The notes below the pieces were generated by a model. The model was not told the origin of the DNA. It did not search any database and worked only from the letters and a program-made list of their open reading frames with translations. The position numbers and the translations under genes are program-made. This document shows, one piece after another, positions 4,671-22,945 of a DNA stretch of 64,000 nucleotides. This stretch comes from Cloacimonetes bacterium UBA5614. GTDB taxonomy: Bacteria > Cloacimonadota > Cloacimonadia > Cloacimonadales > Cloacimonadaceae. How positions within the stretch are numbered: the stretch's first letter is position 1; the number at the start of each line of letters is the position of its first letter. The stretch lies in NCBI GenBank assembly GCA_002424605.1, contig DIKQ01000002.1, positions 23,483 to 87,482 of the forward strand, given 5' to 3'.

Positions 4671-4800
4671 TGTTTCCTTTATCTTTTCTTTGCCTGTTCC
4701 TTGCTTAGATGTCCCGAAGATGTCCCGAAGCCGGCCGGGTTTTCTTCGGGAGGCTTCGGGACATCTCCGCGACAACTAACTGAGGGAAAAGAGAGAAACA
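4671..4800. repeat. Element A copy 1: CT-rich leader plus modular palindrome (GATGTCCCGAA x2 ... CTTCGGGA x2)
   Basis: Near-identical to 11813-11930. Core 4697-4749 and 4754-4777 are identical by manual alignment. GATG modules start at 4708 and 4719 (11-nt period), and inverted CTTCGGG modules start at 4744 and 4754. Confidence 0.85.
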
Positions 4801-4819
4801 TATAAGAATAGAGTGCTTA

Positions 4820-5074
4820 GCAGAGTCGAATATCCCGGGCTCTGACCCGAATTCAGGACATAAAACTATACGAAAGCGGATATCTCCGTAATCGGACAGT
4901 GTTTGCATAAAGTGAAGACAGACAGTAGGATAGACTGCTTGTAGATAGGGTGTATTACGGATTCGGAGAAACCTCTTGAGCAGGAAAACCGGGATACGGA
5001 CGGCTATTGTGCTGCAAAATAGTGTGTTAAGATGTTGGAACAAAGATTGATTATACTTGACTTTGATATGATAT
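4820..5074 (+). promoter_or_regulatory. Duplicated non-coding control block (homolog of 15648-15901), including a fossil EBP-gene 3' end
   Basis: Collinear, high-identity manual alignment with the region between the EBP gene and the pseudo-receiver gene of unit 2. Confidence 0.8.
5036..5051 (+). promoter_or_regulatory. Candidate sigma-54 (-24/-12) promoter, TGGAAC-N5-TTGAT
   Basis: GG and TTG elements at the canonical spacing. Conserved in position with 15863-15878. An NtrC-type EBP is encoded in the locus. Confidence 0.45.
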
Positions 5075-5217
5075 GTGTAAGTATTGGTAATCAGTTCCAG
5101 CTATTATGAACAGGATGCATCTGCTGGATAAGAGTCCCCGGAATCGGACACAGGTGAAACTGGTTAGATCTTAGAAATCAGAATTATAAAAATAAACTAG
5201 AGAGTGAAGGAGAAGTC
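5075..5217 (+). pseudogene. Remnant of the pseudo-receiver gene (nonsense at codon 2 plus ~260-nt internal deletion)
   Basis: GTG TAA GTA TTG GTA here versus GTG AAA GTA TTG GTA at 15902. The 5' ~45 nt and 3' ~110 nt of the 15902-16327 gene are retained and the middle is missing. Confidence 0.75.
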
Positions 5218-8200
5218 ATGAAAAAGCTCGTTATAGTTTTTATGCTGTGCCTGCTGGGTGCGCTTCATGCAGAAACCCGTATAGTATCGTTAACCGATGC
5301 AAGGAGAATTGCAGACAGCAATGCCGCCATATTATGGGGCGGAAATCTCGGATCTGCAGAACCAATCCCTTACTACGGACCGGATGATAAAATCATAGCT
5401 TACCATTTCAACTATGCCATTGGCAGACCTTTTCCTGATAAACATTCTCTTCAGCAAAGAAGCGGTGAGGCACTGTCATCCGGTAACCGAGACCTGGGCT
5501 GGGGCGTGGGCGAATTTGGCAATATGGTTATCGGTGCTAATCGTAATATGCCCGTCTTTGTGGAATATTCCAAATGTCTCTCACAGCAATACGCTTATGC
5601 CCAAAAACTGGAAGAAGCAGCTTCCCGCGAGTTTCCCAAAGGATACGAACTGACCAAAACATACTATCTGGGACTGGTAGATGTCTGGTATAGAATAAAC
5701 GACGGGAATGAAACCAAATATATAAATCTTGAACCCTATACCAAGGTAAAAACAGAGACGGAATTTCGTGAGATGATAAAAGACAAGATCTTTTTCTGGG
5801 AAAGGGACAGTTTTGAGGAGGAATGGGAATACCTGCTGGATAACGGCAACACTATGAGCAGAGCAGAAGTGATGATTCCCGGTGAAGAGCTGATGCCATA
5901 CTATGAGTGGAACTATGGCTGCACACCAACTTCCGGAGCCATGCTTTTTGCCTGGTGGGATGCCTATAAAGGTTATGGTAAACTGATAAAGCACCATTCA
6001 ACCAAATGGGATCCTGTGGTTGGTCGATACACACATCACGTTCCAGATATTCAGGGTATACTGGCAAACACTATGGATACAGGTTCTGATGGCACTACTT
6101 ATTCGTGGGACATTTGTGATGGAATGGTCGATGCTGCAAGTATTGTCGGATACAACTGTGAATCTGACGGTCTTTGGGCTCTTCACCATACTGTAGCAAC
6201 CTTATTTAATGGAATTCGAAATTCAATTGATAGTGGTTATCCAATATTGGTTGACACCTGGTCACATACGATGTGTGCGGTTGGTTATGGAACCTGGCCT
6301 TCCATGGTTCTCGTGCATGACCCTAATCTACCAGCCATTAGATTTCTTTCCAGGTCCTCGTTATGGCGATACTATTGGGCAGATTTTGAACCTTTAAATG
6401 ACTTCCACTCGGCTGAGTTGAATTTTCCCAATGGCGGGACCCAGTGGGAGAATAACTTTGGCGGCGAAACTCTGATATCCGGAATCTATTATGACATTAC
6501 CTGGAGTTCCACACTCAGTCCCAATGCCTATGCCAAGATTTATTATCATGACGAGGGCGGATCGACATCCAACAGATGGTTTCCCATAACCTTATACACT
6601 CCCAATGACGGACATTACCGGTGGCTGGTTCCAACTATTCAGGGTTGTATGTACGGTATCAATACTGACTATGCCAGAGTAAAAATCGAAATCTATGATA
6701 ACAACACCCATCAATTGCTCGCCGCAGACGGGAGCTACGGCAATTTAAAAATAAAAGGCGATTACGTCATGCCCTGGTTGAATGCCGCAGGTACCAATAT
6801 CAATACCAGTAAAATTTACACCAGAATAAATCATTCGACCAATAATAACTGGGGACTGATTGCTTTCCGTGGTTCAAATAGCAACATAGACATAGAGCTT
6901 TACCAGAGTCCGGATTTTTACAATCAGCTATATACCTCGCAATCCCCTTCAAGTTTGAATTATATGCTGATAAACAACTTCCAGCAAACACCCAACGCTT
7001 ATGGAGTCAAGTTTGCTACAGATGTATCATCTTTTCAGGGTAGTGCTGCATTTGTAACATCCAATGCTTCACAAATAAGTCCATATATAACATACAATTA
7101 TGACTGGGGTAATACTGATATAGCCAAAGTTTATCAGGTTTACCTGACACCCGGTCAATATTCTATTACAATGCACAGAATTGCCGGTTTTATGGATCTT
7201 GATATAGCTCTCTATGCGCCTGGCTCGGGTGTTTATACCTATAACCAGGCAGTAGCATATTCCAATAATTACGGTACCGTTGATGATGTAATTGTTTACA
7301 GGGTTACAACTGCCGGTTATTATGCTTTGGTTGTCAGTTGCAGTTCCGAGCATAACGGAGAATACTCAATTCTTATCGAAAACGCCGGTAAATGGCTGGG
7401 GACGGTAAGCAACAACTGGTTCAACCCCGCTAATTGGGTAGGCAATACCGTGCCGAATTTAACAAACGATGTGGTAATACCTCCCGATTGTCCCAATTAT
7501 CCCATTCTTTGGTCAGGAACTTATCCCGAGATTAAGTCCATAAGGATTGAATCGAATGCTTTTCTGACCATCGGAGCCACCGAGATGAATGTCCACCAGA
7601 GCATGCAGGTCTATGGCACTATCAACATGACCTCGAACAGCAGCGTTTTGAGTGTGGGAGAAAACCTGTATTGGGGAGCCGGTTCTTCTCTGGTAGGCAG
7701 TATTTACAATTACCAGATAGTATGTTACAAAAACTGGGACTTTGGATTAGGTTCCAATATTCAGATGACTTCGGGTACCGTGGTATTCTGGGGGGACGAG
7801 GACAGCTATGTCACCACCAGTTCTGCCACTTCCAGGTTCAATAATGTGACCATAAACAAACAATACACTCTCACAGGCAGGTCTGTCATCCATAGCGGAA
7901 ACTCATCCAATGACTGGAGAGTTAACGGCAACCTCTTAATATCAAGCAGCTATTCCACCCTGCGCTCAGATTCAGAGAAAAAAATCATTTTGCTGAACCC
8001 CATTACCAACAACGGGTATATCGAACTGGATAATGGCACCCTTGAACTTACTGCCAGCTGTTCCCTTCCCTATCTATCCACTGGCAACTATCTTAACAAT
8101 CTTGTAATCAGCACTAATGCAGTCAATGCCTTGCCTTCAAATTATAAAATAGTGGGCAATCTCACCATCAACAGCGGTGGCATCGATGCCAACACCAGAA

Positions 8201-11200
8201 CCATTACCTTGTCCGGTAACTTTATAAACAATGTCGGACCTTCAGGATTTGTCAAAGGAACCAGTACCGTAATCTTTAACGGATACGGAGACCAGAGATG
8301 CACCAATGGCAATTTCCACCGCATGGAAGTTAACAAGACGACCGGCAATGTCAAATTCACGGGAACAGGTGCCATTTCAAATGTGGATATCTACGACTGG
8401 ACAACCGGCGGTATAGAAGTAAATCAGGGAGCTCTGACCATTTTTGATTTAGCGGATAACGGCTTGTATGGCACCTACAAAATGACGGGAGGTACTCTAA
8501 ACGTTAATCAGGATAACTCCCAATATACAGACCTTAATGGCAGTCTGTATATCTACAGCGGGACCATGAATGTCTATGGTGGAAACGGAAACAGCTACTG
8601 GCCATATGCAGCCAATGCCCACATAGAAATGCATGGCGGAGTGCTGGATTTCAAAAACCGCGGGATTTACGTCTACAATTCTCCGGTCTTTTCGCTGACT
8701 ACAGAGCTTTTTGGGGGCAGAATCCGCACAGCTGGAAGTTTTCTCTGTTACCGTCCGGACTTCCAGCCTGCCGGGGAGTATTACCTTGAACTTTATGGCA
8801 GTACGGATGCCAACATCTATCTGCATAGTTCCGCCTCGGTACACTCTGTAATATTCAACAAAGGCAGCAACCGTTCGGAGGCCTGTCCTCCCGGGCTTGA
8901 CCTGATAAGACGGGACGGGGTCGACTTTCCCGCAGAACTGCGCAATAGTGAAAATGACTTGACCAGAATCAATCAGGTTAACCTCATCAGCAACGTCTAT
9001 ATCTTCGGTGACCTGATTATCGAATCAGGTACCGTCAACCTGAACAGCTACACCCTGACCACTGAAAGCGATACTGATGTAATAAATGGCACCATTCTAA
9101 TGAACCAGGCATCAGCCCGGTTAGTGACCTATGGCAGATTCCAGTGGGGAGAGAATGCCACACTGAACGTCACTGCAGGTGAAATGCATTTCTATTATCA
9201 TCTTACTATAGCCGAGAATTCTGTCTTCCAGATGGGTTCCGCCACGACAGCCAGATTCTGGACTGAGTTCAGCAAAATTATCAACTATGGTGCCAACTGC
9301 CAGTTCGGCTATGTTGTGCTGGAAGACGGATGCGAACTGGAAATCCTGGACTTTCAGCCGGTTACGATTACAAGCGGCCTGATCCTCCAGGGCGAAAGCA
9401 TTCTGCAGGTCAATGGAGTCCTCAATGTCATCGGCTATGTTGTTGTCTATGAATATGCCAATATCTATATCCGGGCAAACACGACAATCGATTATTACAT
9501 CAATTTGTATGGTGTCCTGACCATAGATAACTCCACTTTAACCTGTCACAGTTACTTATATAACATTGGCGGATCTCTGGTCTTGAATAATAATGGCAGT
9601 TGCATACTTGACAGGGCATTTGACAGCACTTACCATCAGATGGATGGAGTATATATTATAAACAGCGGTGTATTTGAAGTTACGAACAACGGTGTCCAGT
9701 TTACCAACGACTCCTATGTTACCATGTATGGCGGCACCCTCCGCACCGGCTGGAATTTTTGGGCAACCATAGCCAACAGGTTTAATCCGGCTGGCGGCAG
9801 TGTGGAGTTTATCGGAGACAGAAACGCTTCCCTCTGGTGCAATAATGGCAATTACTTCCATAATCTCATCTTCAGCAAACCCGGCACCAGGAGTGTTGGG
9901 ATAAACACGGATTTGCAGATTAATGGTGATTTAATCCACCAGAGCGGTTATTCTGCTATGAACGGATACAACATCCACATCATGAGGGACGTAATTATCC
10001 ACGCAGGCAGAATGGGTGCTTCCAGCACCGACCTGACTGATATCTATGTGGGCAGGAACTGGATAAAAAATGGCGGCTCCTTTGTTGCGGGAACTAATTC
10101 ATTAAACGGCTGCACTGTGCATCTCATCAGTGCCGGTGAAAATGCCGTCCTCTCTACTGAATCATTCTATAACCTTCACATCAACAAACAGAATGCGGTC
10201 GGAAACATTGTTTCGCTGCAGCCCTCTGCTACTGTGCAGGTAAATGGCGCTCTGGACATTGAGCGGGGAAAACTGAATGTGTTGAGTAACAGCATCCTGG
10301 ATGTCAACAACCATCTGACCATCATGCCCGGTGGCGGTTTGCGCCTTAGTGATACTTATACTGGCGGAACCCTTAAACTGGCAGGAAACTTTACCGACCA
10401 GAACACCACTATGGCTGGAGGTGATGGCTTTCAGGCATTAGACGACTGCCTGGTAATTCTGGATGGAACTGCAGACCAATACTTAACCGCTAATTACCCC
10501 TGGCTGCAATTCTATCATTTGTCCGTCGACAAATCCTCCGGCAGGGTTATGCCAAACAGCAACGTGACAATCGCCAGAGAACTGCACCTTGTAAGAGGAG
10601 AGTGGCATTATGGGCAACAGAATGTGGAGTTAGCCATTGGTACAGATTTGGTCGTAGAAGCGGCTGCATCTTTCAATTATTTTACGGGTTGTGTCCGGTT
10701 TGAAAGCTGGAGGGACAGCAATATCACAATCCTTGGTACCGCTAATATGGCTGCTATCCGCATTGATAAAGGCGGCTTCAACTTCAATCTTACCGGGAAC
10801 ACCGTCATTGGCGGAGAACCGGAAATCAGCCTCTACTCCGGTATCATCAACCTGAACGGCCACACCCTTCAGTTGGATGCAGGCCGTATATACATTGGCT
10901 CTGCTGTTTCCACAGTATTTCTGCAGGCGGGTTCTGTCCTCAGTTTGGGCAATGATTTTGTGGTTGAGGTCGTCAACGGCGGCAGATTCGTCACACTGGG
11001 AACGGAAGCCAATCCGGCTCTTGTCACCAGTCATAATGGTTACTATATCTTTATTGTGTTTGATAATGGTAAAATCGGCGGAAGCTGGGGCATCTATGAA
11101 AAGATGAGTGCTGAAGGAATTTGGTTTGAACAGGCATCCAGCCCGGTTGATAATACTTACCCCTGGACTTATCCAACCTTCCGCAATGGCGCACCCGGCG

Positions 11201-11637
11201 GTTCTCTGCTGACCTTTGACGGAGATAATGTCAGCAACATTGTAATTCAAAATCCCATCTTTCCTGCCAATACCTGGGGCAGTATTTACAATGTCGAAAA
11301 GTTTTCATCAATCGGTTCCGTCACTCTGCAGAATGCTACAGGCGCTTTTGCCGGTGCAGTTTTTGAAAGTGACATGTATAACACCGTTCACTGGACTTAT
11401 GTTCTTCAACCACCACAGAACTTTAAAGTTCAAGTAATTAATAATGAATTGGTTTTTTCTTGGGATGCTGTCCCTAATGTCAACGGTTACAACTTGTACT
11501 ACTGTTCAGACCCTGATTTCTCAAGCTCTCCGGTGGGAACCGTTTCTGACGGGGTAGCTGATACGTTCTTTTCTACTCCCTTAATCTGGTTCCCTGAGCC
11601 CTATATGTTTTTCAGGGTAACTGCATTTCAGGATTAA
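5218..11637 (+). CDS. Giant secreted protein 1 (2139 aa): signal peptide, papain-like cysteine peptidase, PPC-like domain, long beta-helix repeat region, C-terminal FN3-like domain
   Basis: RBS GAAGGAG lies before the ATG. Signal peptide is MKKLVIVFMLCLLGALHA. Cys motif YGCTPTSGAM (Cys235, nt 5920-5922) and His motif SHTMCAVGYG (His350, nt 6265-6267). Repeated GNLTINSGG / LSGNFINN type strands. C-terminus has ...SWDAVPNVNGYNLYY...FFRVTAFQD. Confidence 0.9.
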   Translation: MKKLVIVFMLCLLGALHAETRIVSLTDARRIADSNAAILWGGNLGSAEPIPYYGPDDKIIAYHFNYAIGRPFPDKHSLQQRSGEALSSGNRDLGWGVGEFGNMVIGANRNMPVFVEYSKCLSQQYAYAQKLEEAASREFPKGYELTKTYYLGLVDVWYRINDGNETKYINLEPYTKVKTETEFREMIKDKIFFWERDSFEEEWEYLLDNGNTMSRAEVMIPGEELMPYYEWNYGCTPTSGAMLFAWWDAYKGYGKLIKHHSTKWDPVVGRYTHHVPDIQGILANTMDTGSDGTTYSWDICDGMVDAASIVGYNCESDGLWALHHTVATLFNGIRNSIDSGYPILVDTWSHTMCAVGYGTWPSMVLVHDPNLPAIRFLSRSSLWRYYWADFEPLNDFHSAELNFPNGGTQWENNFGGETLISGIYYDITWSSTLSPNAYAKIYYHDEGGSTSNRWFPITLYTPNDGHYRWLVPTIQGCMYGINTDYARVKIEIYDNNTHQLLAADGSYGNLKIKGDYVMPWLNAAGTNINTSKIYTRINHSTNNNWGLIAFRGSNSNIDIELYQSPDFYNQLYTSQSPSSLNYMLINNFQQTPNAYGVKFATDVSSFQGSAAFVTSNASQISPYITYNYDWGNTDIAKVYQVYLTPGQYSITMHRIAGFMDLDIALYAPGSGVYTYNQAVAYSNNYGTVDDVIVYRVTTAGYYALVVSCSSEHNGEYSILIENAGKWLGTVSNNWFNPANWVGNTVPNLTNDVVIPPDCPNYPILWSGTYPEIKSIRIESNAFLTIGATEMNVHQSMQVYGTINMTSNSSVLSVGENLYWGAGSSLVGSIYNYQIVCYKNWDFGLGSNIQMTSGTVVFWGDEDSYVTTSSATSRFNNVTINKQYTLTGRSVIHSGNSSNDWRVNGNLLISSSYSTLRSDSEKKIILLNPITNNGYIELDNGTLELTASCSLPYLSTGNYLNNLVISTNAVNALPSNYKIVGNLTINSGGIDANTRTITLSGNFINNVGPSGFVKGTSTVIFNGYGDQRCTNGNFHRMEVNKTTGNVKFTGTGAISNVDIYDWTTGGIEVNQGALTIFDLADNGLYGTYKMTGGTLNVNQDNSQYTDLNGSLYIYSGTMNVYGGNGNSYWPYAANAHIEMHGGVLDFKNRGIYVYNSPVFSLTTELFGGRIRTAGSFLCYRPDFQPAGEYYLELYGSTDANIYLHSSASVHSVIFNKGSNRSEACPPGLDLIRRDGVDFPAELRNSENDLTRINQVNLISNVYIFGDLIIESGTVNLNSYTLTTESDTDVINGTILMNQASARLVTYGRFQWGENATLNVTAGEMHFYYHLTIAENSVFQMGSATTARFWTEFSKIINYGANCQFGYVVLEDGCELEILDFQPVTITSGLILQGESILQVNGVLNVIGYVVVYEYANIYIRANTTIDYYINLYGVLTIDNSTLTCHSYLYNIGGSLVLNNNGSCILDRAFDSTYHQMDGVYIINSGVFEVTNNGVQFTNDSYVTMYGGTLRTGWNFWATIANRFNPAGGSVEFIGDRNASLWCNNGNYFHNLIFSKPGTRSVGINTDLQINGDLIHQSGYSAMNGYNIHIMRDVIIHAGRMGASSTDLTDIYVGRNWIKNGGSFVAGTNSLNGCTVHLISAGENAVLSTESFYNLHINKQNAVGNIVSLQPSATVQVNGALDIERGKLNVLSNSILDVNNHLTIMPGGGLRLSDTYTGGTLKLAGNFTDQNTTMAGGDGFQALDDCLVILDGTADQYLTANYPWLQFYHLSVDKSSGRVMPNSNVTIARELHLVRGEWHYGQQNVELAIGTDLVVEAAASFNYFTGCVRFESWRDSNITILGTANMAAIRIDKGGFNFNLTGNTVIGGEPEISLYSGIINLNGHTLQLDAGRIYIGSAVSTVFLQAGSVLSLGNDFVVEVVNGGRFVTLGTEANPALVTSHNGYYIFIVFDNGKIGGSWGIYEKMSAEGIWFEQASSPVDNTYPWTYPTFRNGAPGGSLLTFDGDNVSNIVIQNPIFPANTWGSIYNVEKFSSIGSVTLQNATGAFAGAVFESDMYNTVHWTYVLQPPQNFKVQVINNELVFSWDAVPNVNGYNLYYCSDPDFSSSPVGTVSDGVADTFFSTPLIWFPEPYMFFRVTAFQD

Positions 11638-11760
11638 AAGCACCCATGTATAATTACTGTGATGGTTGTTGTAAGCACAATGGATTTCTTCTGAAATCGC
11701 TTTTGTGCATGATAAGATTGTGATTCTAAGCATAGTGTAACAACTATCAAATCAAACTGC

Positions 11761-11797
11761 GGCTGCCGCGCTCTCCTTGCCGGCAGCCGTTTTTTTT
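11761..11797 (+). terminator. Rho-independent terminator of giant gene 1
   Basis: GGCTGCCG ... CGGCAGCC stem followed by T8. Same sequence as 22792-22828. Confidence 0.85.
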
Positions 11798-11812
11798 CTA
11801 TACTAATAAAAG

Positions 11813-11930
11813 TTGTTTCCTGCTTCTTCCTTGCTTAGATGTCCCGAAGATGTCCCGAAGCCGGCCGGGTTTTCTTCGGTTATCTTCGGGACATCTCCGC
11901 GACAACTCACTGAGAAAGTAAAGAGAAACA
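11813..11930. repeat. Element A copy 2
   Basis: tgtttcctgcttcttccttgcttaGATGTCCCGAAGATGTCCCGAAGccggccgggttttCTTCGGttatCTTCGGGACATCtccgcgacaac, near-identical to copy 1. Confidence 0.85.
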
Positions 11931-11971
11931 GATAAGTTGACTGGTTACATCCAATGCTGTGCAAATCAAGA

Positions 11972-12053: not shown

Positions 12054-14306
12054 ATGCCTAAAACTATTATAAGTAATAGTTTAGTGTCTTCATCATCTGA
12101 CTGCAGTGCCGGGGAGAAGGCCGGCGAGTTACTGCAGAAAGCTGTTTCGTTTTTGAAAAACAATCCGGAAGAAGCGTTGCGTTATGCCGTCAAGGCAGAA
12201 CAGATTGCAAAAAAAAATAATCAATCCTATGAACTGGCAATGGCAGGGAAGATTGCCGGGAATGTACACTTTAACAGAAACGCTAATGACCAGGCGCACA
12301 AAAAATACCAATCAGCCCTCAAACCAGCCCTGCAAGCAGGCGATGATAAGCTTTTGGGGGATTTGCACTATAACCTGGGCAGGACCTTTACACGCAAAAA
12401 AGATTACCAGCCCGCCCTTGAGCATTTGCTGAAATCTCTGGAATACAGGAAAAAACTACCCACCAGAGAAGATGAAAGCGCTTCGCTGAACCATATCGGA
12501 CAAGTTTACTGGGAACTGAAAGACTATGACAAGGCAAGCGACTTTTTCCGGAACTCTACGGAATTGATTAACCCGGACGAACAAATTTTGCTTGCTTCCG
12601 CAGTGTATAACAATCTCGGGAATGCCCTGCTGAAAACCGGGAACACGGATAAAGCGCTGGAAGCATACCTTGTTTCGCTGCATTGCAAGGAAAAGCTGGG
12701 CAAGGACGACAGTATCGCCACAGCTTACATCAGTCTGGGAAACCTTTATTTTACCTGCGGGGAGTTTTACAAAGCGGCGGAGTTTTATCTCAAGGCAAGT
12801 AAAAAGTTTGATAAACCCGGATACCGCAAAATGGCAGCCACGGCTTTTTCCAACCTTGGCTCCACGTACAACGAACTGGGAAATGACAAGCTGGCTCTTC
12901 AGTTCCACAGAAAAGCGCTAAAGGTTTTTGATACAGAAAAACTGCCGGAAGAAGAAGCCAAATCGCTTAATAACATCGGGAACGTCTATCTGAAACGGCA
13001 GGATTATAACAAAGCGCTGAGCTATTTCCGGCAAGCGCTGGAAATCAAGCTGATGAAGGGCGATAATGAAAGCCTGGCAATTGCCTACAACAATCTGGGC
13101 AGTGTATTCTGCCTGAAAGGAAACCTGAAAGCTGCAGCGGAGAACTTTGCCATGTCGGTAAGCCATGCGGAACAAACCGGCAACAAGAAAATGCTGTTGG
13201 AGAATTACAGCCGTTTGGGAGACGTCTCTGCCGCTCTTGGCGACTACGAGAATGCCTTTGAATTTCTCAGGAAACACTGCAAGGCAGATTTGGAGCTTTA
13301 CAGCGAGGAATCCAGGAACAGATTGACTGAGACGATGGTGCGCTTTGACGTGGAGCTCAAAACCAGCGAGATTAATCAACTCACTGAACTGCAGAAAGTC
13401 CAGAAAGAAATGCTGGACAGGCAGATAAGAGACAAGCTGCGTTATATGAATCTGTACCGCTCCAAACAACGTGAAGTCAAAAAACGCGAGCAGGCCCAGA
13501 AAGCTTTGCAGGCATTGAACAAGGATTTGGAAGTCCGCATCGAAAAAGCCCTGGCTGAATATAAAGTTCAGCAGGAACTTATCATCCAGAAATCAAAACT
13601 GGAATCCCTTGGCGTGCTGGCAGCAGGCATCGCGCATGAGGTTTACCAGCCGCTTTCCGCCATCTCCATCAGCATTAACAATATGCGCAATAAAGCCCAG
13701 AAAAATGAGCTGACCAGCCAATATCTTAGTAATAAATTTAACCGGATTTCGGAAGACATACAGCGCATCCGCCAGGTAATCGAGCACGTACGTCTGTTTT
13801 CCCGCGAGCAGAAAGATAACCATCTGGAAAGGATAGACATTCACCAGACCCTCAAGGATGCCCTGAGGCTGATAGGATATGATTTGAATAGGCAAGGCAT
13901 CAAAACCAGCCTGAATCTGGCGGAGTCTTCCCCTGTTTCTGTGGGCAGTAAATTCAAGCTGGAACAGGTGTTTCTGAACCTGATATCCAATGCCAGGGAC
14001 GCAGTATTGGAAAAGCAAGCAGGCAAATCCGCCTATGAACCGCAGATAGAAATCAGGACAAGCACCCGCAACGCAAGCGTCGAGATTGACTTCACAGATA
14101 ATGGTACCGGAATGAGCCAGGCAGTGACTGACAAGATGTTTGACCCGTTTTTCACCACCAAAAATCCGGAAAAGGGAACGGGTCTGGGGCTTTCCATCAG
14201 CTACGGCATCATCAGGGAAATGGAAGGTGAGATATCCGTACTGAGCGAACCTGATGAGTTCACAAGAATCACAGTTAAGCTTCCTGACCTGCAGGAGAAA
14301 AGATGA
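12054..14306 (+). CDS. Cytoplasmic TPR-repeat sensor histidine kinase
   Basis: About 400 aa of TPR-like repeats, then a coiled coil. H-box LAAGIAHEVYQPL, N-box NLISNARDA, G1 DNGTGM, G2 GTGLGLS. No hydrophobic TM segment seen. Confidence 0.85.
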   Translation: MPKTIISNSLVSSSSDCSAGEKAGELLQKAVSFLKNNPEEALRYAVKAEQIAKKNNQSYELAMAGKIAGNVHFNRNANDQAHKKYQSALKPALQAGDDKLLGDLHYNLGRTFTRKKDYQPALEHLLKSLEYRKKLPTREDESASLNHIGQVYWELKDYDKASDFFRNSTELINPDEQILLASAVYNNLGNALLKTGNTDKALEAYLVSLHCKEKLGKDDSIATAYISLGNLYFTCGEFYKAAEFYLKASKKFDKPGYRKMAATAFSNLGSTYNELGNDKLALQFHRKALKVFDTEKLPEEEAKSLNNIGNVYLKRQDYNKALSYFRQALEIKLMKGDNESLAIAYNNLGSVFCLKGNLKAAAENFAMSVSHAEQTGNKKMLLENYSRLGDVSAALGDYENAFEFLRKHCKADLELYSEESRNRLTETMVRFDVELKTSEINQLTELQKVQKEMLDRQIRDKLRYMNLYRSKQREVKKREQAQKALQALNKDLEVRIEKALAEYKVQQELIIQKSKLESLGVLAAGIAHEVYQPLSAISISINNMRNKAQKNELTSQYLSNKFNRISEDIQRIRQVIEHVRLFSREQKDNHLERIDIHQTLKDALRLIGYDLNRQGIKTSLNLAESSPVSVGSKFKLEQVFLNLISNARDAVLEKQAGKSAYEPQIEIRTSTRNASVEIDFTDNGTGMSQAVTDKMFDPFFTTKNPEKGTGLGLSISYGIIREMEGEISVLSEPDEFTRITVKLPDLQEKR

Positions 14307-15673
14307 ATACGCAACACATTCTGATTCTGGACGACGAACCCCGCCTGAGAGAGGAATTACTTGAGTTCCTGACTGATGAAGGATACAAATGCTTTGAAGC
14401 CAGCTCTCCTTCCGAAGCTATGAAAGTAATCAGGGCAAACAGGATAGACATAGCCATAGTGGACATCAATCTGCCTGAAAAAGATGGCATTGCAGTCTTG
14501 AAGGAAATCAAGGAATATGACGAGGATATTGAAGTCCTGATGATAACCGGACAGGGAGATATGGATCTTGCCATCCGTTCGATGCGGTCCGGAGCTGCTG
14601 ATTTCTTTAACAAACCCATTCAGCCAGAAGAAGTCCTGCAGGCAGTGGAACGGAGCAAGCGTTTCATCAATCTCACCCGGCGCTGCCAGCATTTACGCAA
14701 CAATTATGACAGGGTGTTTCATGAACTGCAGGATAATCTGGGATTGCAGATGCTGGGCACCAGTAAAGCCATCAGGGAGATAAAGTCCGATATTGAGACC
14801 GCAGCAAAAAACCCTGACACAGCAGTCCTGATCAGCGGTGAAAGCGGTACGGGAAAGGAACTGGTTGCTCGCAGCATCCATCACCTGAGCGCCCGGAAAC
14901 ATCACTATTTCTATGCGGTTAATTGCGCTGCTATTCCGGAAAACCTGTTTGAAAGCGAGTTCTTTGGATATACCAAAGGTGCCTTCACAGGCGCTGCCGC
15001 CAATAAGCAGGGCTGGTTTGAAATTGCCGACAAAGGAACGCTGTTTTTAGACGAAATCGGCGATATGCAGCCCTTTATGCAGGCGAAACTGCTGCGTGTG
15101 ACGGAAGACGGAGTGGTTCACAGATTGGGGAGCAACAGGGATATCCAGGTCAATGTCAGATTGATTTCCGCCACTAACCGGGATATAGCAGATTTGGTTG
15201 ATAAGGGGATTTTCAGGCAGGACCTCTATCATCGCCTGAACACTATACAGATACATATCCCTCCCCTGAGGGAACGCCGGGAAGACATCCCTGTCCTGGT
15301 GGAACACTTCCTGCGTCATTTTACCCAAAAGACCGGAAAAGCCATCCCGGAAATTGAATCAGGCCTTTTGGACAAATTGATGCAATATCCCTTCAAAGGC
15401 AATGTCAGGGAGTTGAAGAATATGCTGGAAAGGGCTGTCATCCTCTGCGATGGCTCCCGGCTCAGCCAAAAGCACTTTAACTCGCTTGGCAACGACAAAT
15501 CAAACCACCATTCACCATCTGGCGAACCTGAAAATCTGAACTTGGAATCCCTGGAAAAAGAAGCGGTGAAAAAAGCTCTGCAAAGCTGCGGCAACAACAA
15601 ACAGCAGGCGGCAAAACTACTCAATATTACCTGGCAGTCACTGGAACGCAGAATCAAGAAACACGGGCTCTGA
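14303..15673 (+). CDS. NtrC-family sigma-54-dependent response regulator (REC, AAA+, Fis-type HTH)
   Basis: REC domain (ILILDDE, VDINLP). Walker A GESGTGKE, sigma-54 contact loop GAFTGA, Walker B LFLDEIG. C-terminal HTH AAKLLNITWQSLERRIKK. ATGA overlap with the kinase gene. Confidence 0.92.
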   Translation: MNTQHILILDDEPRLREELLEFLTDEGYKCFEASSPSEAMKVIRANRIDIAIVDINLPEKDGIAVLKEIKEYDEDIEVLMITGQGDMDLAIRSMRSGAADFFNKPIQPEEVLQAVERSKRFINLTRRCQHLRNNYDRVFHELQDNLGLQMLGTSKAIREIKSDIETAAKNPDTAVLISGESGTGKELVARSIHHLSARKHHYFYAVNCAAIPENLFESEFFGYTKGAFTGAAANKQGWFEIADKGTLFLDEIGDMQPFMQAKLLRVTEDGVVHRLGSNRDIQVNVRLISATNRDIADLVDKGIFRQDLYHRLNTIQIHIPPLRERREDIPVLVEHFLRHFTQKTGKAIPEIESGLLDKLMQYPFKGNVRELKNMLERAVILCDGSRLSQKHFNSLGNDKSNHHSPSGEPENLNLESLEKEAVKKALQSCGNNKQQAAKLLNITWQSLERRIKKHGL

Positions 15674-15862
15674 GCCGAACTCAGGATAGATAGCTATACG
15701 AAAGCGGATACCTCCGTAATCGGATAGTGTTAGCATAAAGTGATGACAGACAGCAGGATAGACTGCATTTCTGCGGATGTTTGACGGAATCGGATAGTCT
15801 TTTTGAGGCGGAAATCCGGGACGCGGACAGCTATTGTGCTGCAATATAGTGTGTTAAGGTTT

Positions 15863-15878
15863 TGGAACAAAGGTTGTT
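15863..15878 (+). promoter_or_regulatory. Candidate sigma-54 (-24/-12) promoter, TGGAAC-N5-TTGTT
   Basis: Lies about 25 nt upstream of the GTG at 15902, which is preceded by RBS GAGGTGA. Positionally conserved with 5036-5051. Confidence 0.45.
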
Positions 15879-15901
15879 AATACTAATAGCAGAGGTGAGA
15901 T

Positions 15902-16327
15902 GTGAAAGTATTGGTAACCAAGTCCAGCCTTTATGAACGGGATGAACTGCAGGAGTTTTTCCAGGACCATTCCTGGGAGCCCACTTTTGCAGAAGAGTCC
16001 AAAACGATGTATCAGATGCTGTCGCGGGAGGATTTTGATACAGTCCTGTTTAATCTCAGCAGTACGGATGACTTTGCTGCCATCAGGTACATTAACAGGA
16101 ACTATCCGAATATCCGGGTGATAGTTTCCACCGATGACAGGCTGGTATCGACCATCCGCAATGTGCGGGCAGGCAAGTTCACGGTAACGGGCCATCTGGA
16201 AAAGATGAATCTGCTGGAAAAGCTGTTCCCGGAATCGGACACAGGCGAAACTGCTGATACAGGAAAGTCGGAAATAGAAGAAGTCAGAAATATAAAAATC
16301 AACAAGAGAGTGAAGGAGAAGTTATGA
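15902..16327 (+). CDS. Stand-alone pseudo-receiver (REC-like fold lacking phospho-acceptor residues)
   Basis: GTG start after GAGGTGA. By eye it aligns to CheY-like receivers, but the acidic pair is TK (KVLVTKSS), the phospho-Asp position is Asn (VLFNLSS), and the conserved Lys is absent. ATGA overlap with giant gene 2. Confidence 0.65.
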   Translation: MKVLVTKSSLYERDELQEFFQDHSWEPTFAEESKTMYQMLSREDFDTVLFNLSSTDDFAAIRYINRNYPNIRVIVSTDDRLVSTIRNVRAGKFTVTGHLEKMNLLEKLFPESDTGETADTGKSEIEEVRNIKINKRVKEKL

Positions 16328-19300
16328 GAAAGCTCGTTATAGTTTTTTTGCTGTGCCTGCTGGGTACGCTTTATGCTGAAACCCGCATAGTGTCGTTAAC
16401 CGATGCAAGGAGAATTGCAGACAGCAATGCTGCCATATTATGGGGCGGCAATCTCGGTTCTGCAGAGCCAATACCTTACTACGGACCGGATGATAAAATC
16501 ATTGCTTATCATTTCAACTATGCCATCGGCAGACCTTTTCCTGATAAACATTCTCTTCAACAAAGAAGCGGAGAGGCATTTTCATCAGGTAACCGAGATC
16601 TTGGCTGGGGCGTGGGCGAATTTGGCAATATGGTTATCGGTGCCAATCGCGGCATGCCAGTGTTCATAGAATATGGCAAAGGGCTTTCCTACATATTGGC
16701 TATGGGAAACAAGCTAGAGGAAGTTGCCCGTAAAGAATTTCCTGCAGGATACACTCTGGAAAAAACCTATTATCTTGGTTTGGTCCATATCTGGCACAAG
16801 ATAACCTCCGGCACAGAGGTGCGCTATATTAATCTGCAGCCATATACAAAGGTTATTGGAGAATCTGAGTTCCGGGAAATGGTAAGCACCAGAGCTTTCT
16901 TTTGGGAACGCGGTAATTTTGATGAAGAATGGACCACTTTTTTAGACAATGATGGGACCATCGGACGCTCTGATGTCTGGGTTGTTGGTGAAGAATATAT
17001 GCCGTTTTACGAATGGAGTTATGGCTGCACTCCCACTGCAGCAGCAATGATATGCGCCTGGTGGGACCACTACAAAGGTTATTCCCGTCTGATAGATTAT
17101 CATATTTCACGAGGAGACCCTGTACAGGATGGCTATGATCACCATGTTCCCACTATACAAGGCTTACTTGCTGCTCATATGGATACTGATCCATCTACCG
17201 GAGGAACAGCGGTCAGTGATATCAGTGATGGTATTATAAATGCAGTGGAATCTTTAGGCTATGAATGCTCTTCCGACGGTTTAATTGGCTGGAACGAAGA
17301 CAGCAACGATGTTTATTGGGAAATCATTGATCAGATTGATGGTAATCATCCCTGTATGGTCGGAATTGATAGACATTCTATAGCTGGTGTGGGGTACAAT
17401 CTGACAACCCGGTCAATAATTATTCATGATTCTAACCGTTCTTATGCCTACCAAATTACCCGTTCAATGCTCGAAAGATATCAGTGGGTGTCCCTTCAGC
17501 CTATCAGTAACAATTACTATCTGGAAATCACCTACCCCAATGGAGGCGAAGTCTGGGGTTCAAATATTGGTGGCGGAACTCTTATTTCAGGTGTCTATTA
17601 CGACATTACCTGGAATGGAATGTTGAGTTCAGAGACATATGCCAAGCTATATTACCATCACGAGGGAGGACAAAATCCAGATCGCTGGTTTCCAATCACA
17701 ACATTTACTCCCAATGACGGGCATTATCAATGGCTGGTACCCATCCCGCAAGATTGTGTATTTGGGATTAATACTGATTACAGTAGGGTTAAGATCGAAA
17801 TATATGATTTGAATACCCATGAAATGCTAGCCGCTGATGGCAGTTTTGGCAATTTCAAAACAGGGGGAAGTTTTACTGTTCCTGAACTTACTTTGAATGC
17901 AACTCATTTATTTGGTGGCAATAACCTTTTTGTCGCTCCACAAACTGAAACAGGTACCTGGGGCGCAGTTATTGTAAAAGAAGATCCATTAATGTTGGGA
18001 ACAAAGATTGAATTATTTAATGGTCCGGACTTTTATCAGGAGTATGTAGAATCAATATCCAGCGAGAAAATCAATTATGTTATGATTAACAATCATCAGT
18101 TGCTACCCAGAGAATATGGAGTCAGAATATCAAATATGTATAGTACAGATAATGTATCAACATGGGCATCTAATTCCTCAATACCCGGTCTAATATTGAA
18201 TCCCGGGACTCCGCACACCGATATTTGGACTTCAGGTGTTTTAGGCAAAGTATTTAATGTGTATCTAAATCCCGGGAGTTACTTTTTTGAAATGACAATG
18301 GATTCTTATATGAATCTGGATTTTGCTTTGTTTACTCCATTCGGAGCAGGTGGTATCTATACTTATAATCAAGCAGCTGCTTACTCCAGAAATTCACTTT
18401 TTGGGGGTAGTGAAGGATTTTTCTACACAGTCCCCGAAGCTGGATACTATGGTCTGATTGTTACAGCAAGGGTAAATGGCGTTGGCACTTATAACATCAA
18501 CATCCACAATCCCGGTAAATGGCTGGGAACTGCCGATACCAACTGGTTCAATCCTGCCAACTGGATTGGCAATTCCGTGCCGAATTTTACAAACGATGTG
18601 GTAATACCAGGCGGATGTCCCAATTATCCCATTATTCTGACAGGAACTTATCCTGAGATAAAGTCTATATCTGTTGAAGCGAATGCTTTACTCACCATAG
18701 GCGCTACCGAAATGAATGTGCACCAGAGCATGCAGGTCTATGGCATTATCAACATGACCTCGAACAGCAGCGTTTTGAGTGTGGGTGAAAACCTGTATTG
18801 GGGAGCCGGTTCTTCTCTGGTAGGCAGTATTTACAATTACCAGATAGTATGTTACAAAAACTGGGACTTTGGATTAGGTTCCAATATTCAGATGACTTCG
18901 GGAACCGTAGTATTCTGGGGAGATCAGGACAGCTATGTCACCACCAGTTCTGCCACTTCCAAGTTTAATAATGTTACCCTGAATAAAATCACGGCAGGGC
19001 GTTCAGTAATCCATAGTGAATATTCCAGCAATGACTGGAGGATATACGGCAACCTGACAATCTCAAATTCCAACACCACGTTAAGTTCGGAAACAGATAA
19101 GAAAATCCAGATATATAGCAGTATTACCAATAATGGGCATATCCAGTTGGATAACGGAACAGTCGATTTCAAGATAGGAAGCTCATTGCCTGTCCTCAAT
19201 ACAGGCGATTACTTTTATGGCTTGACCATCAGCACTACTACCGCTTTATCTCTGCCTTCCAATTACAGCATCAGTGGTGACCTCACTATCTCCAGTGGAG

Positions 19301-22300
19301 GCATCAATGCCAACACCAGAGCCATTACCTTGTCCGGCAACTTCATAAACAATGTGGGACCTGCAGGGTTTGTCAAAGGCACCAGTACCGTTATCTTTAA
19401 CGGCGGCGGAGACCAGAGATGCACCAATGGCAATTTCTATCGTATGGAGATTGCAAGCCAGTACTGCAATGTTATATTCACGGGAGCCGGAGCAACATCA
19501 ACCTGCGATATCTATGACTGGACGGCCGGTTCATTGGAAGTGGAGCAGGGAACTCTAAACATTTTAGATTTAGCGGATAACGGCTTGTATGGCAATTACA
19601 TGTTAACGGGTGGTACTCTTAATGTTAATCAGGATAACTCCCAATACACAGACCTTAATGGCAGTCTGTATATCTACAGTGGGACCATGAATGTCTATGG
19701 CGGAAACGGCAACAGCTACTGGCCATATGCAGCCAATGCCCATATTGAAATGCACGGCGGAGTGCTGGATTTCAGGAATCGCGGCATCTATATTTATAAT
19801 TCTCCCACGTATACACTGACCACAGAGCTCAGGGGTGGTATAATCCGTACAGCCGGAAGCTTCCTCTGTTACAGGCCGGATTTCTGGTTTGCTGATGAGC
19901 ATTACATTGAGCTCTACGGGTCTACAGATGCCAATATCTATCTGCACAGTTCCGCCGGTTTTCACTCATTTATCTTCAACAAAGGTTCTGCCCGGGCGGA
20001 TGCCTGCCCTGCCGGCCTTGACCAGATAGAGAGGGAAGGCGTGGAACTGCCGGTTGAACTGCGTAGCAGCAACAGCAGCGCTACCCGGGCAAATACCGTT
20101 AACCTCATCAGCAACGTCTATATCTTCGGTGACCTGATTATTGAATCAGGTACCGTCAACCTGAACAGCTACAACCTGACCACTGAAAGCGATTCTGATG
20201 TCATGGGTGGCACCATTATTATGAACCAGGCATCAGCCCGGTTAGTGACTTATGGCAGATTCCAGTGGGGAGAGAATGCCGTTCTCAATGCTACGGCAGG
20301 TGAGATGCATTTCTATCACAGTCTGACTTTTGCTGAGGACTCAGTCTTCCAGATGGGTACGGGTACTACAGCCAGATTCTGGACTGAGTTCAATACCATT
20401 GCCAGTTACGCAGACATCTGCCAGTTTGGGAATGTTGTCCTGGAAGACGACTGCGAAATGGAAATCCTGAATTATCAGCCCATCACGATAACGGGTAATA
20501 TGTCTCTGCTTGGTGAAAGCATCCTTCGGGCAGATGGCGTTATCAACATTAGTGGCAGCTTTACGGACAATGAATATGCCTACACGTATATCCAGACAGA
20601 TATGACGGTTAATCAGAACATCCTGCTATACGGTGTCCTGACTATAGAAAACTCCACTCTCACCTGTCATGGCAACTTCCAGAACCTTGCCGGAAGCCTT
20701 GTCCTTAGCAATAATGGTAACTGCATAATTGACAGACCTTTTGACAGCACCTACCAGTTGATTGAGGGAGGCTTGATTATCAGTAGCGGTGTGTTTGAAG
20801 TCACTAACAATGGTATCCAGTTTACCAATGACGCCTATCTTGCTATGGATGGCGGCACCATCCGCACCGGCTGGAATTTTGTGGCAACCAGTTCCAATGT
20901 CTTCAATCCCGATGGCGGAAGCGTGGAGTTTATCGGCGACAGGAATGCCACAATTGAATGCAACAACGGCAATTATTTCTATGATATCGTCTTCAACAAA
21001 CCCATCACAACCAATGTTGTTTCGGTTCTGACTGACCTGAGTGTAGGGCTTGACTTCACCGTACTGGGTGGAAATCCGGCTTTAAACGGTAACAACATTT
21101 ACATTAGTCGTGATATGATAATCAATGGTGGCAGGGTCTCTGCCTCCAGTAACTCTCTTACGGACATCTATGTCGCCAGGAACTGGATTAACAATGTCGG
21201 AACAACTGCGTTTTCCGAGGGCACCACTCCGTTAAACTATTCCACCGTACATTTCTACGGTGCAGAAAACTCCATTGTATCGACCGAGACGTTTTATGTG
21301 TTGCGTATCAATAAAAGCACCTCAGGCAGCTACACTGTGACTCCTCAGGCCGGGGCAACGATTACTGCCAAGGGTCCGGTGGAGATTGTAAGGGGTAATT
21401 TGCAGCTCAGGGATAATTGCATCCTTGATGTTAATAGCAGTATCAATATCTCTGCTGGCGGGGGCTTGGACCTTAGTGACACATCGTCTTACGGAACGCT
21501 TTATCTGACGGGAAATCTTTATGATGCAAATACTACTTTCGGCTCAGGAGTCGGGTTTGATGCCATTGCCGAATGCCATGTTATCCTTGATGGCGGTGGA
21601 GACCAGATTATTGACGCTAACCGCAGCAATGTTCAGTTCTACAATCTCACAGTCAACAAACCCTCCGGAAGGGTTATGCCCCATAAAAATGTCTCCACCT
21701 CCGGCTACCTTCATCTGATTTCAGGTGAATGGAATTATGGAGTGGCAGGCTTGGTCAAATTAATCATGACCAACCTGATTATAGAAGCTGCTGCTTCCTT
21801 TACTGATAATACCGGCATAGTTCTTTTTGATGGCTGGATTGTCAGCGAAGCAAGAATTCTTGGCAATGCCTCGCTGGGAACTATCAACATTGACAAAGGT
21901 GCGTATAGCTTCAACCTGAGCGGGAATGTGTCCTTGGCAGGAACCACCACCCTGAACCTGATCAGCGGTAATATCAATTTAAACGGGTACACTCTGCAGA
22001 TGACTGGCACCCTAAATCTGGCAAACTATCTTTATCTGCAGCCAAGCTCCGTCCTCAGCCTGGGAAACAACTCCGTGCTGAATGTCAACAACGGCGGCAG
22101 GTTCATTACGCTGGGAACGCAAGCCAATCCTGCCCTGGTCACCAGTCATGACGGCTATTATGCCTTTAACGTGAACGATTATGGGAAAATCGGCGGTAGC
22201 TGGGGAATCTACGAAAAGATGAATATCAATGGAATTCTCTTTGCTCAAAGGACAAGCATTGACAGCGAATATCCCATGCAGTACCCGACCTTCCGCAACG

Positions 22301-22752
22301 GTGCTCCCGGCGGTTCCCTGCTGCGCGTTAATTGGGCTGCTGCCAGTAACAACGTAATCCAGAATCCCATCTTCCCTGCCAATACCTGGGGAGGGCTCTA
22401 TAACGTCAGGAAGGCAGGCGGCACCGGTTCCATCACTCTCCAGAATGCCACCGGTGCTTTTTCCGGAGCAGCGTTTGAATATGACCCCTATGGCACTGTA
22501 CACTGGACCTATCCGGTCGCTCCGGGAGTTCCCCAGAACGTTCAGATTATCCGGGTCTCAGGCAATGCAGTGCTTTCCTGGAATGCTGTTGCCGGAGTTA
22601 CGGGATACAAAATATACCGTGCTGTTTCTCCGGAACTGATGGGTGAAGCCATACTGGTCGGAACCACCGCACAGACCTCTTTCACGGATACGGTTCATCC
22701 GTTGGGTTCACATACTGCGGGATTCTACTTTGTGAAGTCTTATGTAGATTAA
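16324..22752 (+). CDS. Giant secreted protein 2 (2142 aa), paralog of 5218-11637
   Basis: Same architecture as protein 1. Signal peptide MRKLVIVFLLCLLGTLYA, Cys motif YGCTPTAAAM, His motif RHSIAGVGYN, beta-helix repeats, C-terminal FN3-like ...SWNAVAGVTGYKIYR...FYFVKSYVD. Confidence 0.9.
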   Translation: MRKLVIVFLLCLLGTLYAETRIVSLTDARRIADSNAAILWGGNLGSAEPIPYYGPDDKIIAYHFNYAIGRPFPDKHSLQQRSGEAFSSGNRDLGWGVGEFGNMVIGANRGMPVFIEYGKGLSYILAMGNKLEEVARKEFPAGYTLEKTYYLGLVHIWHKITSGTEVRYINLQPYTKVIGESEFREMVSTRAFFWERGNFDEEWTTFLDNDGTIGRSDVWVVGEEYMPFYEWSYGCTPTAAAMICAWWDHYKGYSRLIDYHISRGDPVQDGYDHHVPTIQGLLAAHMDTDPSTGGTAVSDISDGIINAVESLGYECSSDGLIGWNEDSNDVYWEIIDQIDGNHPCMVGIDRHSIAGVGYNLTTRSIIIHDSNRSYAYQITRSMLERYQWVSLQPISNNYYLEITYPNGGEVWGSNIGGGTLISGVYYDITWNGMLSSETYAKLYYHHEGGQNPDRWFPITTFTPNDGHYQWLVPIPQDCVFGINTDYSRVKIEIYDLNTHEMLAADGSFGNFKTGGSFTVPELTLNATHLFGGNNLFVAPQTETGTWGAVIVKEDPLMLGTKIELFNGPDFYQEYVESISSEKINYVMINNHQLLPREYGVRISNMYSTDNVSTWASNSSIPGLILNPGTPHTDIWTSGVLGKVFNVYLNPGSYFFEMTMDSYMNLDFALFTPFGAGGIYTYNQAAAYSRNSLFGGSEGFFYTVPEAGYYGLIVTARVNGVGTYNINIHNPGKWLGTADTNWFNPANWIGNSVPNFTNDVVIPGGCPNYPIILTGTYPEIKSISVEANALLTIGATEMNVHQSMQVYGIINMTSNSSVLSVGENLYWGAGSSLVGSIYNYQIVCYKNWDFGLGSNIQMTSGTVVFWGDQDSYVTTSSATSKFNNVTLNKITAGRSVIHSEYSSNDWRIYGNLTISNSNTTLSSETDKKIQIYSSITNNGHIQLDNGTVDFKIGSSLPVLNTGDYFYGLTISTTTALSLPSNYSISGDLTISSGGINANTRAITLSGNFINNVGPAGFVKGTSTVIFNGGGDQRCTNGNFYRMEIASQYCNVIFTGAGATSTCDIYDWTAGSLEVEQGTLNILDLADNGLYGNYMLTGGTLNVNQDNSQYTDLNGSLYIYSGTMNVYGGNGNSYWPYAANAHIEMHGGVLDFRNRGIYIYNSPTYTLTTELRGGIIRTAGSFLCYRPDFWFADEHYIELYGSTDANIYLHSSAGFHSFIFNKGSARADACPAGLDQIEREGVELPVELRSSNSSATRANTVNLISNVYIFGDLIIESGTVNLNSYNLTTESDSDVMGGTIIMNQASARLVTYGRFQWGENAVLNATAGEMHFYHSLTFAEDSVFQMGTGTTARFWTEFNTIASYADICQFGNVVLEDDCEMEILNYQPITITGNMSLLGESILRADGVINISGSFTDNEYAYTYIQTDMTVNQNILLYGVLTIENSTLTCHGNFQNLAGSLVLSNNGNCIIDRPFDSTYQLIEGGLIISSGVFEVTNNGIQFTNDAYLAMDGGTIRTGWNFVATSSNVFNPDGGSVEFIGDRNATIECNNGNYFYDIVFNKPITTNVVSVLTDLSVGLDFTVLGGNPALNGNNIYISRDMIINGGRVSASSNSLTDIYVARNWINNVGTTAFSEGTTPLNYSTVHFYGAENSIVSTETFYVLRINKSTSGSYTVTPQAGATITAKGPVEIVRGNLQLRDNCILDVNSSINISAGGGLDLSDTSSYGTLYLTGNLYDANTTFGSGVGFDAIAECHVILDGGGDQIIDANRSNVQFYNLTVNKPSGRVMPHKNVSTSGYLHLISGEWNYGVAGLVKLIMTNLIIEAAASFTDNTGIVLFDGWIVSEARILGNASLGTINIDKGAYSFNLSGNVSLAGTTTLNLISGNINLNGYTLQMTGTLNLANYLYLQPSSVLSLGNNSVLNVNNGGRFITLGTQANPALVTSHDGYYAFNVNDYGKIGGSWGIYEKMNINGILFAQRTSIDSEYPMQYPTFRNGAPGGSLLRVNWAAASNNVIQNPIFPANTWGGLYNVRKAGGTGSITLQNATGAFSGAAFEYDPYGTVHWTYPVAPGVPQNVQIIRVSGNAVLSWNAVAGVTGYKIYRAVSPELMGEAILVGTTAQTSFTDTVHPLGSHTAGFYFVKSYVD

Positions 22753-22791: not shown

Positions 22792-22828
22792 GGCTGCCGC
22801 GCTCTCCTTGCCGGCAGCCGTTTTTTTT
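22792..22828 (+). terminator. Rho-independent terminator of giant gene 2
   Basis: GGCTGCCG ... CGGCAGCC stem followed by T8. Confidence 0.85.
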
Positions 22829-22842
22829 ATACTGAAGAATAT

Positions 22843-22945
22843 TGTTTCCTGCTTCTCCCTTTATGAGATGTCCCGAAGATGTCGCGGAGATGGCCGGGTT
22901 TTCTTCGGGAGGCTTCGGGGCATCTTCGGGACATCTAAGTAAGCG
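22843..22945. repeat. Element A copy 3 (rearranged variant, 3 + 3 modules)
   Basis: Same CT-rich leader (tgtttcctgcttctccc). GATG modules start at 22867, 22878 and 22889. CTTCGGG modules start at 22903, 22913 and 22924. There is a perfect 16-bp pairing between 22866-22881 and 22921-22936. Confidence 0.8.

Follow-up and report, generated by a model that had tools for sequence, protein, structure and literature searches.

What process leaves two giant genes strongly diverged over most of their length and almost identical over a few short tracts? The question is raised by a 64,000-nucleotide (nt) stretch of contig DIKQ01000002.1 (positions 23,483 to 87,482) from Cloacimonetes bacterium UBA5614, referred to below as the window, which carries two paralogous genes for giant secreted proteins, designated A and B. 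The source is a 1.94-Mb metagenome-assembled genome that is 69% complete and consists of 14 contigs, and the homologs of the two genes carry the source label 'Candidatus Cloacimonetes'. An initial annotation of the window had attributed the patchwork to repeated gene conversion or recombination between tandem paralogs. The analysis described here leads us to favor repeated short-tract gene conversion between A and B as the explanation of the mosaic, with a probability of about 0.8. For comparison, we use gene C from a sister strain (locus L028) and gene D, an ortholog from another species (locus L030).

Two old paralogs with a nearly identical tract

A and B are old and strongly diverged paralogs, with an overall identity of 61% at the amino acid level and 66% at the nucleotide level. 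They form direct repeats about 11.1 kb apart, both read from the plus strand of a single contig, and their arrangement is identical in three assemblies. No more than two close copies, A and B, were found in the genome, both of them full-length open reading frames (ORFs); other family members are at most 36% identical. Their description as tandem paralogs needs a qualification: they are not strictly adjacent, as genes for a histidine kinase and a sigma-54 activator intervene. The coordinates of the genes, taken from the ORF list, and of the tract that is central to the analysis are:

5218–11637, plus strand, giant paralog A (2139 amino acids)
16324–22752, plus strand, giant paralog B (2142 amino acids)
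7594–7775, plus strand, core conversion tract in A, with its partner at 18721–18902 in B
18721–18902, plus strand, core conversion tract in B, with two B-private substitutions at 18746 and 18786

A recount of the core tract reproduced the two mismatches in 182 nt reported in the initial annotation and placed them at 7619 (C in A, T in B) and 7659 (A in A, T in B). Synonymous sites are alike as well: the proportion of synonymous differences (pS) is 0.03, and 35 consecutive synonymous codons are identical, 2000 permutations yielding no more than 29. The longest exact run shared by A and B is 116 nt (7660–7775), whereas the longest obtained in 500 codon-column permutations was 42 nt. Immediately upstream of the tract, the 94 nt from 7500 to 7593 contain 19 mismatches. 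To delimit regions of this kind along the entire alignment, segments were scored by log-odds against a threshold set by permutation (99th percentile of the null, 18.6). Five segments exceeded the threshold, and identity elsewhere was 59.8%. The additional high-identity blocks listed in the initial annotation correspond to these segments:

5223–5543, plus strand, block 1 (partner 16329–16649), 93.1% identical, score 92, pS 0.29, encoding the signal peptide and N-terminal domain
7441–7847, plus strand, block 2 (partner 18568–18974), 91.4% identical, score 98, holding the core tract and encoding the first rungs of a predicted beta-solenoid
8179–8316, plus strand, block 3 (partner 19300–19437), 91.3% identical
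8439–8653, plus strand, block 4 (partner 19560–19774), 92.1% identical, with D unusually similar too
8977–9159, plus strand, block 5 (partner 20098–20280), 94.5% identical, with pS 0.10 between A and B and 0.81–0.85 relative to D
5544–7384, plus strand, variable cassette of the N-terminal module of A (partner about 16650–18511 in B), with putative peptidase and beta-sandwich domains, saturated pS and a proportion of non-synonymous differences (pN) of 0.37

The peptidase region and residues ~520–720 barely align, as had been stated, with amino acid identities of 17–43% in 30-codon windows.

Synonymous divergence and controls for constraint

Sliding Nei-Gojobori estimates of synonymous divergence (dS) between A and B are far from uniform, ranging from 0.04 at 7630–7749 and 0.15–0.4 in the other blocks to saturation over 5578–7390, 7876–8175 and 9916–10900. 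Purifying selection acting only on the protein would have left uniform dS and blocks distinguished by low non-synonymous divergence (dN) only; in the low-dS blocks, dN is low as well. Among residues conserved between A and B, the fraction encoded by identical codons is 0.85 in the blocks and 0.48 outside of them, and codon usage predicts 0.37. The clearest control is D. At the codons of the core tract it differs from A with a pS of 0.73 and a pN of 0.20, values no lower than in the rest of the gene, and the neighboring kinase and regulator genes of D have a pS of 0.75–0.77 to the window. Given this full divergence of D at the very codons of the tract, the near-identity of A and B there cannot be put down to constraint. 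A second control is an unlinked pair of paralogs from a genome of the same genus (G003), in which the tract region has a pS of 0.74–0.84 and a pN of 0.39–0.46, and in which no window anywhere has a pS below 0.45. These two full-length genes lie on different contigs (C70:72212-78583 and C95:56742-63062; loci L039 and L040) and group together in the tree. No low-dS tract was seen between them, which fits the view that conversion requires linkage or some residual identity. Overall, A and B are nearly identical in the segments because these share recent common ancestry and not because of constraint, with block 4 being less clear.

Other features that might hold a stretch of coding sequence constant were also considered. 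The predicted RNA fold of the tract was no better than that of shuffled sequences (z = +0.2) and no long antisense ORF covers it, and an embedded RNA structure or antisense gene was therefore rejected. GC-biased conversion left no signal either, the GC content at third codon positions being 0.51 within the tracts, against 0.49 for the background. Separately, pS between A and D drops to 0.23–0.40 at residues 1669–1708 and 1924–2002 of A (window ~10220–10340 and ~10990–11220), which hints at between-species exchange or local synonymous constraint.

Conflicting phylogenies of background and low-dS columns

Trees with outgroups were inferred separately for background columns (5088 nt) and low-dS columns (1461 nt). 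The background supports ((A,D),(B,C)) at 100/100 and rejects a clade of A, B and C (approximately unbiased test, p-AU = 5e-4 for DNA and 2e-71 for protein). Low-dS columns, on the other hand, place (A,(B,C)) apart from D, again with support of 100/100, and reject an (A,D) clade (p-AU = 0.003). The disagreement between the two trees indicates that the split between A and B predates D's species and that the tracts were exchanged long afterwards.

A natural chimera in a sister strain

Searching for chimeric alleles in sister strains had been suggested as a check, and one was found at locus L028 (JGI metagenome 3300037043), where the flanking genes have a pS of 0.04–0.12 to the window. The counterpart of window positions 4807–11820 is missing there altogether, and the sole giant gene of the locus, C, sits at the B position after the same kinase, regulator and small ORF. 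In C, about 2.2 kb of A-type sequence that makes up the N-terminal module (~5190 to 7383/7384) is joined to a B-type remainder. Within 5222–7383 C is A-like at 555 sites and B-like at 161, compared with 29 A-like and 1218 B-like sites outside this interval, and a 3SEQ-like statistic for C reached 1189, whereas 10000 permutations gave at most 810. The left junction (~5185–5222) falls in the region of the ribosome-binding site and start codon, just upstream of block 1. On the right, the junction (~7384–7401) coincides with a 16-nt stretch (7385–7400) that is the same in A, B and C and at which homology into block 2 starts. With junctions at these two places, the exchanged piece is the entire N-terminal module. 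Its identity to A is uneven, being 97–99% at 5518–5760 and just 55–80% past ~6100, which indicates that the module came from an A-type allele different from this A. JGI and Logan assemblies contain 5 contigs that encode the identical C protein.

Could C have arisen by a one-step deletion between A and B? This origin was rejected, since the B-type upstream DNA (pseudo-receiver, response regulator and histidine kinase) is retained in C together with the kinase and regulator genes. For the same reason, C is best described as a patch introduced by conversion or a double crossover. The rest of C differs little from B (pS 0.00–0.08), except that pS is locally raised to 0.14 at 18514–18720 (7387–7593 in A) and to 0.22 at 19611–19820 (8491–8700 in A), suggesting further small patches of between-strain recombination. 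Scans of metagenome and genome contigs for additional alleles returned distant relatives only, at most 56% identical over short stretches, and when A and the B cassette served as protein queries, C and D remained the closest alleles. For the B-type N-terminal module, the protein search yielded no relative above 49% amino acid identity.

A model of repeated exchange and its alternatives

The heterogeneity of dS, the full divergence of D, the switch in tree topology and the natural chimera all support gene conversion or recombination between the paralogs, as the initial annotation had proposed. Several events of different ages provide the simplest account of the tract divergences. In this model, homologous recombination of the RecA type would have copied stretches of ~140–400 nt between A and B several times, each conversion zeroing synonymous and non-synonymous divergence over its tract. 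Since every event resets divergence in this way, the gene would become a patchwork of tracts of different ages. Judged by dS, these ages would correspond to ~0.03 at 7594–7775, ~0.1 at 8977–9159 and ~0.3–0.4 at the older tracts (5223–5543, 8179–8316 and 8439–8653), in a background that is otherwise saturated; the pS of block 1 likewise suggests an older exchange. The last exchange in the core tract would be approximately as old as the split between the strains, given that the tract pS of 0.03 compares with strain-level values of 0.04–0.12. On a larger scale, the same process may have produced the whole-module swap at the sister strain's B locus, in which ~2.2 kb of A-type sequence begins shortly ahead of the start codon and ends where the beta-solenoid starts. 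From these results we infer that the exchange took place within one genome, was non-reciprocal and depended on RecA.

Several observations weigh against this model or limit it. A and B are equidistant from D in the tract, which gives no indication of the direction of transfer. The low-dS columns were picked by the similarity of A and B, which makes the tract tree partly circular, and the 182-nt tract by itself fails to reject the (A,D) clade (p-AU = 0.25); the non-circular support for conversion is the unreduced divergence from D. Block 4 is also similar in D (nucleotide identity 0.87, pS 0.44–0.56), and constraint may contribute there. Finally, the tract of A is the same as that of C (0 differences), while its neighbor B differs at 2 sites, and the tract donor could thus have been another strain's DNA. 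This last point leads to an alternative that we regard as unlikely, though not negligible: the tracts were imported from co-occurring strains by ectopic recombination or module replacement, and the mosaic reflects a population-wide pool of alleles. The uneven similarity of C's module to A, the locally raised pS between B and C, and the windows of reduced pS between A and D, set against the value for the neighboring kinase and regulator genes, would all fit such a history. However, a simpler source is a donor within the chromosome itself, at a distance of 11 kb, two differences in 182 nt are within ordinary strain divergence and do not discriminate, and no third allele with the tracts turned up in the collections searched. 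Import of this kind would in any case still be recombination between paralogs, modifying gene conversion between A and B without replacing it.

Selection that holds the blocks alike, whether through strong purifying selection on the protein combined with biased codon usage or through an RNA or DNA element within the coding region, appears very improbable. It would account for the low dN that accompanies low dS, for the overlap of blocks 1 and 4 with segments conserved across the wider family, and for the unusual similarity of D in block 4. The tract, though, has diverged freely both in D and in the G003 paralogs, the search for an embedded element was negative, codon bias predicts far less codon identity than the 0.85–1.0 observed, and the data from blocks 2 and 5 already contradict the idea. 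It is harder still to credit an assembly or polishing artefact, in which collapse of repeats or path switching between the paralogs created false identity or a false chimera. This concern arises from the fragmentary, metagenome-assembled nature of the genome and from an older assembly version with a frameshift inside block 5. Yet JGI 3300000558, JGI 3300002220 and ENA ERZ27315067 (k141_187131) match the window from A to B, barring three one-base insertions in the oldest, and these assemblies come from different pipelines (JGI 'Draft', JGI 'CLC' and ENA k141) and all keep both tract mismatches. Moreover, the longest exact repeat is shorter than the k of 141 in the ENA contig name, the flanks of the tract are too diverged for collapse (~80% identical), the single-copy strain L028 has the same tract sequence, and the chimera was recovered repeatedly. 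The three insertions in JGI 3300000558 (L041), at 15473, 15561 and 20168, break the reading frames of the sigma-54 regulator and of gene B (into 1287 + 843 amino acids) in that record and are probably sequencing errors rather than biology.

Domain organization of the encoded proteins

The A protein begins with a Sec signal peptide and a conserved N-terminal domain. A putative C39-like Cys/His peptidase comes next, then beta-sandwich domains and a predicted beta-solenoid, and the C-terminal end is FN3-like. AlphaFold2 models of residues 1–723 and 724–1461 had mean confidence (pLDDT) values of 89.9 and 90.5, respectively. The peptidase assignment draws on a weak match to PF13529 (Peptidase_C39_2) in A, C and D (18.6 bits, below the cut-off of 24), with no hit for B; on precomputed Pfam assignments of PF13529 to many homologs; and on Cys235 and His350, which are invariant in 21 homologs. 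In Foldseek comparisons, the modeled beta-sandwich domains of the N-terminal module resemble collagen-binding and pre-peptidase C-terminal (PPC) domains (5iku, 1nqj, 5sv5). A sequence search of the PDB gave no hit. The region after the N-terminal module is predicted to form an all-beta solenoid, and the core tract would encode its first rungs. Foldseek searches of the PDB with the solenoid model returned nothing significant, with beta-helix adhesins and tailspikes listed only.

The solenoid module opens with the motif GKWLGT..NWFNPANW (residues 724–740 of A, window 7387–7437, with NWFNPANW at residues 733–740). Homology matches in many Bacteroidota, Cloacimonadota and other phyla start exactly at this motif and include many unrelated proteins of the FCB (Fibrobacteres-Chlorobi-Bacteroidetes) group. 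The N-terminal heads ahead of the motif differ among homologs, one example being a C10 peptidase in P0026.

In these unassigned proteins of about 2100 amino acids, what changes fast and can be exchanged is the N-terminal module, with its putative peptidase and binding-like domains, whereas the beta-solenoid is the scaffold; this offers a lead as to where ligand or substrate specificity resides. Surface or antigenic variation, mentioned in the initial annotation, would be a plausible consequence of exchange between A and B, and any adaptive role of the exchange would be presumptive. A more specific proposal, which we consider quite doubtful, is that the conserved blocks are maintained as recombination anchors around an exchangeable head cassette (the peptidase and PPC/collagen-binding-like domains, residues ~1–723), making A and B a two-locus cassette exchange system. 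If true, such a system would diversify the specificity of a giant, sigma-54-controlled surface protein in natural populations, for example against phage or in response to changing substrates.

Comparison with known systems

The process itself is textbook; what is new is a further example with a clean natural chimera in an uncharacterized family of giant proteins. Recombination between diverged paralogs is documented here at strain-level time depth in a lineage without genetics, and the hybrid allele is direct evidence for it. Of practical importance, genes of this kind will give misleading orthology calls, dN/dS estimates and strain types if their mosaic structure is ignored.

The closest parallel is provided by the bab genes of Helicobacter pylori, in which gene conversion between the babA, babB and babC loci gives rise to babAB, babBA and babBC chimeras (PMC4552749). 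Both cases involve full-length paralogs of surface proteins at separate loci of one chromosome, with conserved and divergent stretches, and in both, natural strains have chimeric alleles that are joined within shared sequence, here represented by C; two alleles of the present arrangement were available. The host here is an environmental Cloacimonadota bacterium instead of a pathogen. Its genes are roughly three-fold longer than the bab genes and lack a CT-repeat phase switch, and the extreme 3' end of A and B is their most divergent part and not a conserved anchor.

In Salmonella, RecA-dependent gene conversion keeps tufA and tufB almost identical over their whole length. Short non-reciprocal tracts homogenize paralogs, synonymous sites included, in that system as they appear to do in this one, but A and B are converted only in patches, the larger part of the gene having been left untouched (60% identity beyond the blocks). 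Rhs and CdiA proteins undergo displacement of modules by recombination at a conserved demarcation motif, the C-terminal toxin being variable. A and B similarly have a conserved junction, the GKWLGT..NWFNPANW motif, that parts a variable module from the scaffold, and the module is exchanged; their variable module, however, is N-terminal and resembles peptidase and binding domains rather than a C-terminal toxin, and neither an immunity gene nor promoterless orphan cassettes accompany it. Neisseria pilE/pilS and Borrelia vlsE are programmed systems of antigenic variation with silent cassettes. Segmental gene conversion yields mosaic genes for surface proteins there as well, but A and B are both complete ORFs with their own sigma-54-like motif, and no silent-cassette array was found. 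A programmed silent-cassette system of this type was rejected since there are only two close copies, both full-length and with a promoter-like motif.

Regulatory surroundings and the A-unit

Between the paralogs and in front of each, the following features were identified:

12054–14306, plus strand, tetratricopeptide-repeat (TPR) histidine kinase, between A and B
14303–15673, plus strand, NtrC-type sigma-54 activator, between A and B
5036–5049, plus strand, sigma-54-like -24/-12 motif TGGAACAAAGATTG, upstream of A
15863–15876, twin copy of the sigma-54-like motif, upstream of B

The promoter-like pattern TGGAACAAAGRTTG has exactly 2 matches in the window (0 expected), one before each giant gene. 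Homology of the paralogous units extends beyond the ORFs on either side, with 79% identity between 4820–5128 and 15648–15954 and 84% between 11761–11907 and 22792–22936. The small ORF before B (15902–16327) has a weak match to the receiver domain (PF00072, 17.5 bits versus a cut-off of 30.2). Its counterpart in front of A (5075–5217) has been shortened by a deletion of ~250 nt. In L028 and L030, the small ORF is intact. At L030 (608–3883), D has a type II CRISPR-Cas module with Cas9 and Cas1 as a neighbor, and the contig extends 415 nt past the D gene.

The segment missing from the sister strain is bordered by two copies, in direct orientation, of a palindromic element that resembles repetitive extragenic palindromic (REP) sequences:

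4807–11820, plus strand, A-unit (leader, gene A and terminator), present in the window and absent at the L028 locus
4691–4806, plus strand, REP-like palindromic element Ta, left border of the A-unit
11821–11936, plus strand, REP-like palindromic element Tb, right border of the A-unit, 89% identical to Ta

The A-unit is a presence/absence polymorphism between strains. L028 has a single hybrid element (5498–5613), the left part of which is like 4691–4806 and the right part like 11821–11936, and this fits either deletion by recombination between Ta and Tb or insertion at the element. The ~116-nt element consists of GATGTCCCGAAG modules around CCGGCCGGG, and a further copy is present in the window at 22850–22938. 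It is a dispersed repeat and behaves in the manner of an intergenic element of the REP or miniature inverted-repeat transposable element (MITE) type, with 72 BLAST matches in the 1.94-Mb assembly counting both strands, corresponding to some 40 sites, mostly at 82–94% identity.

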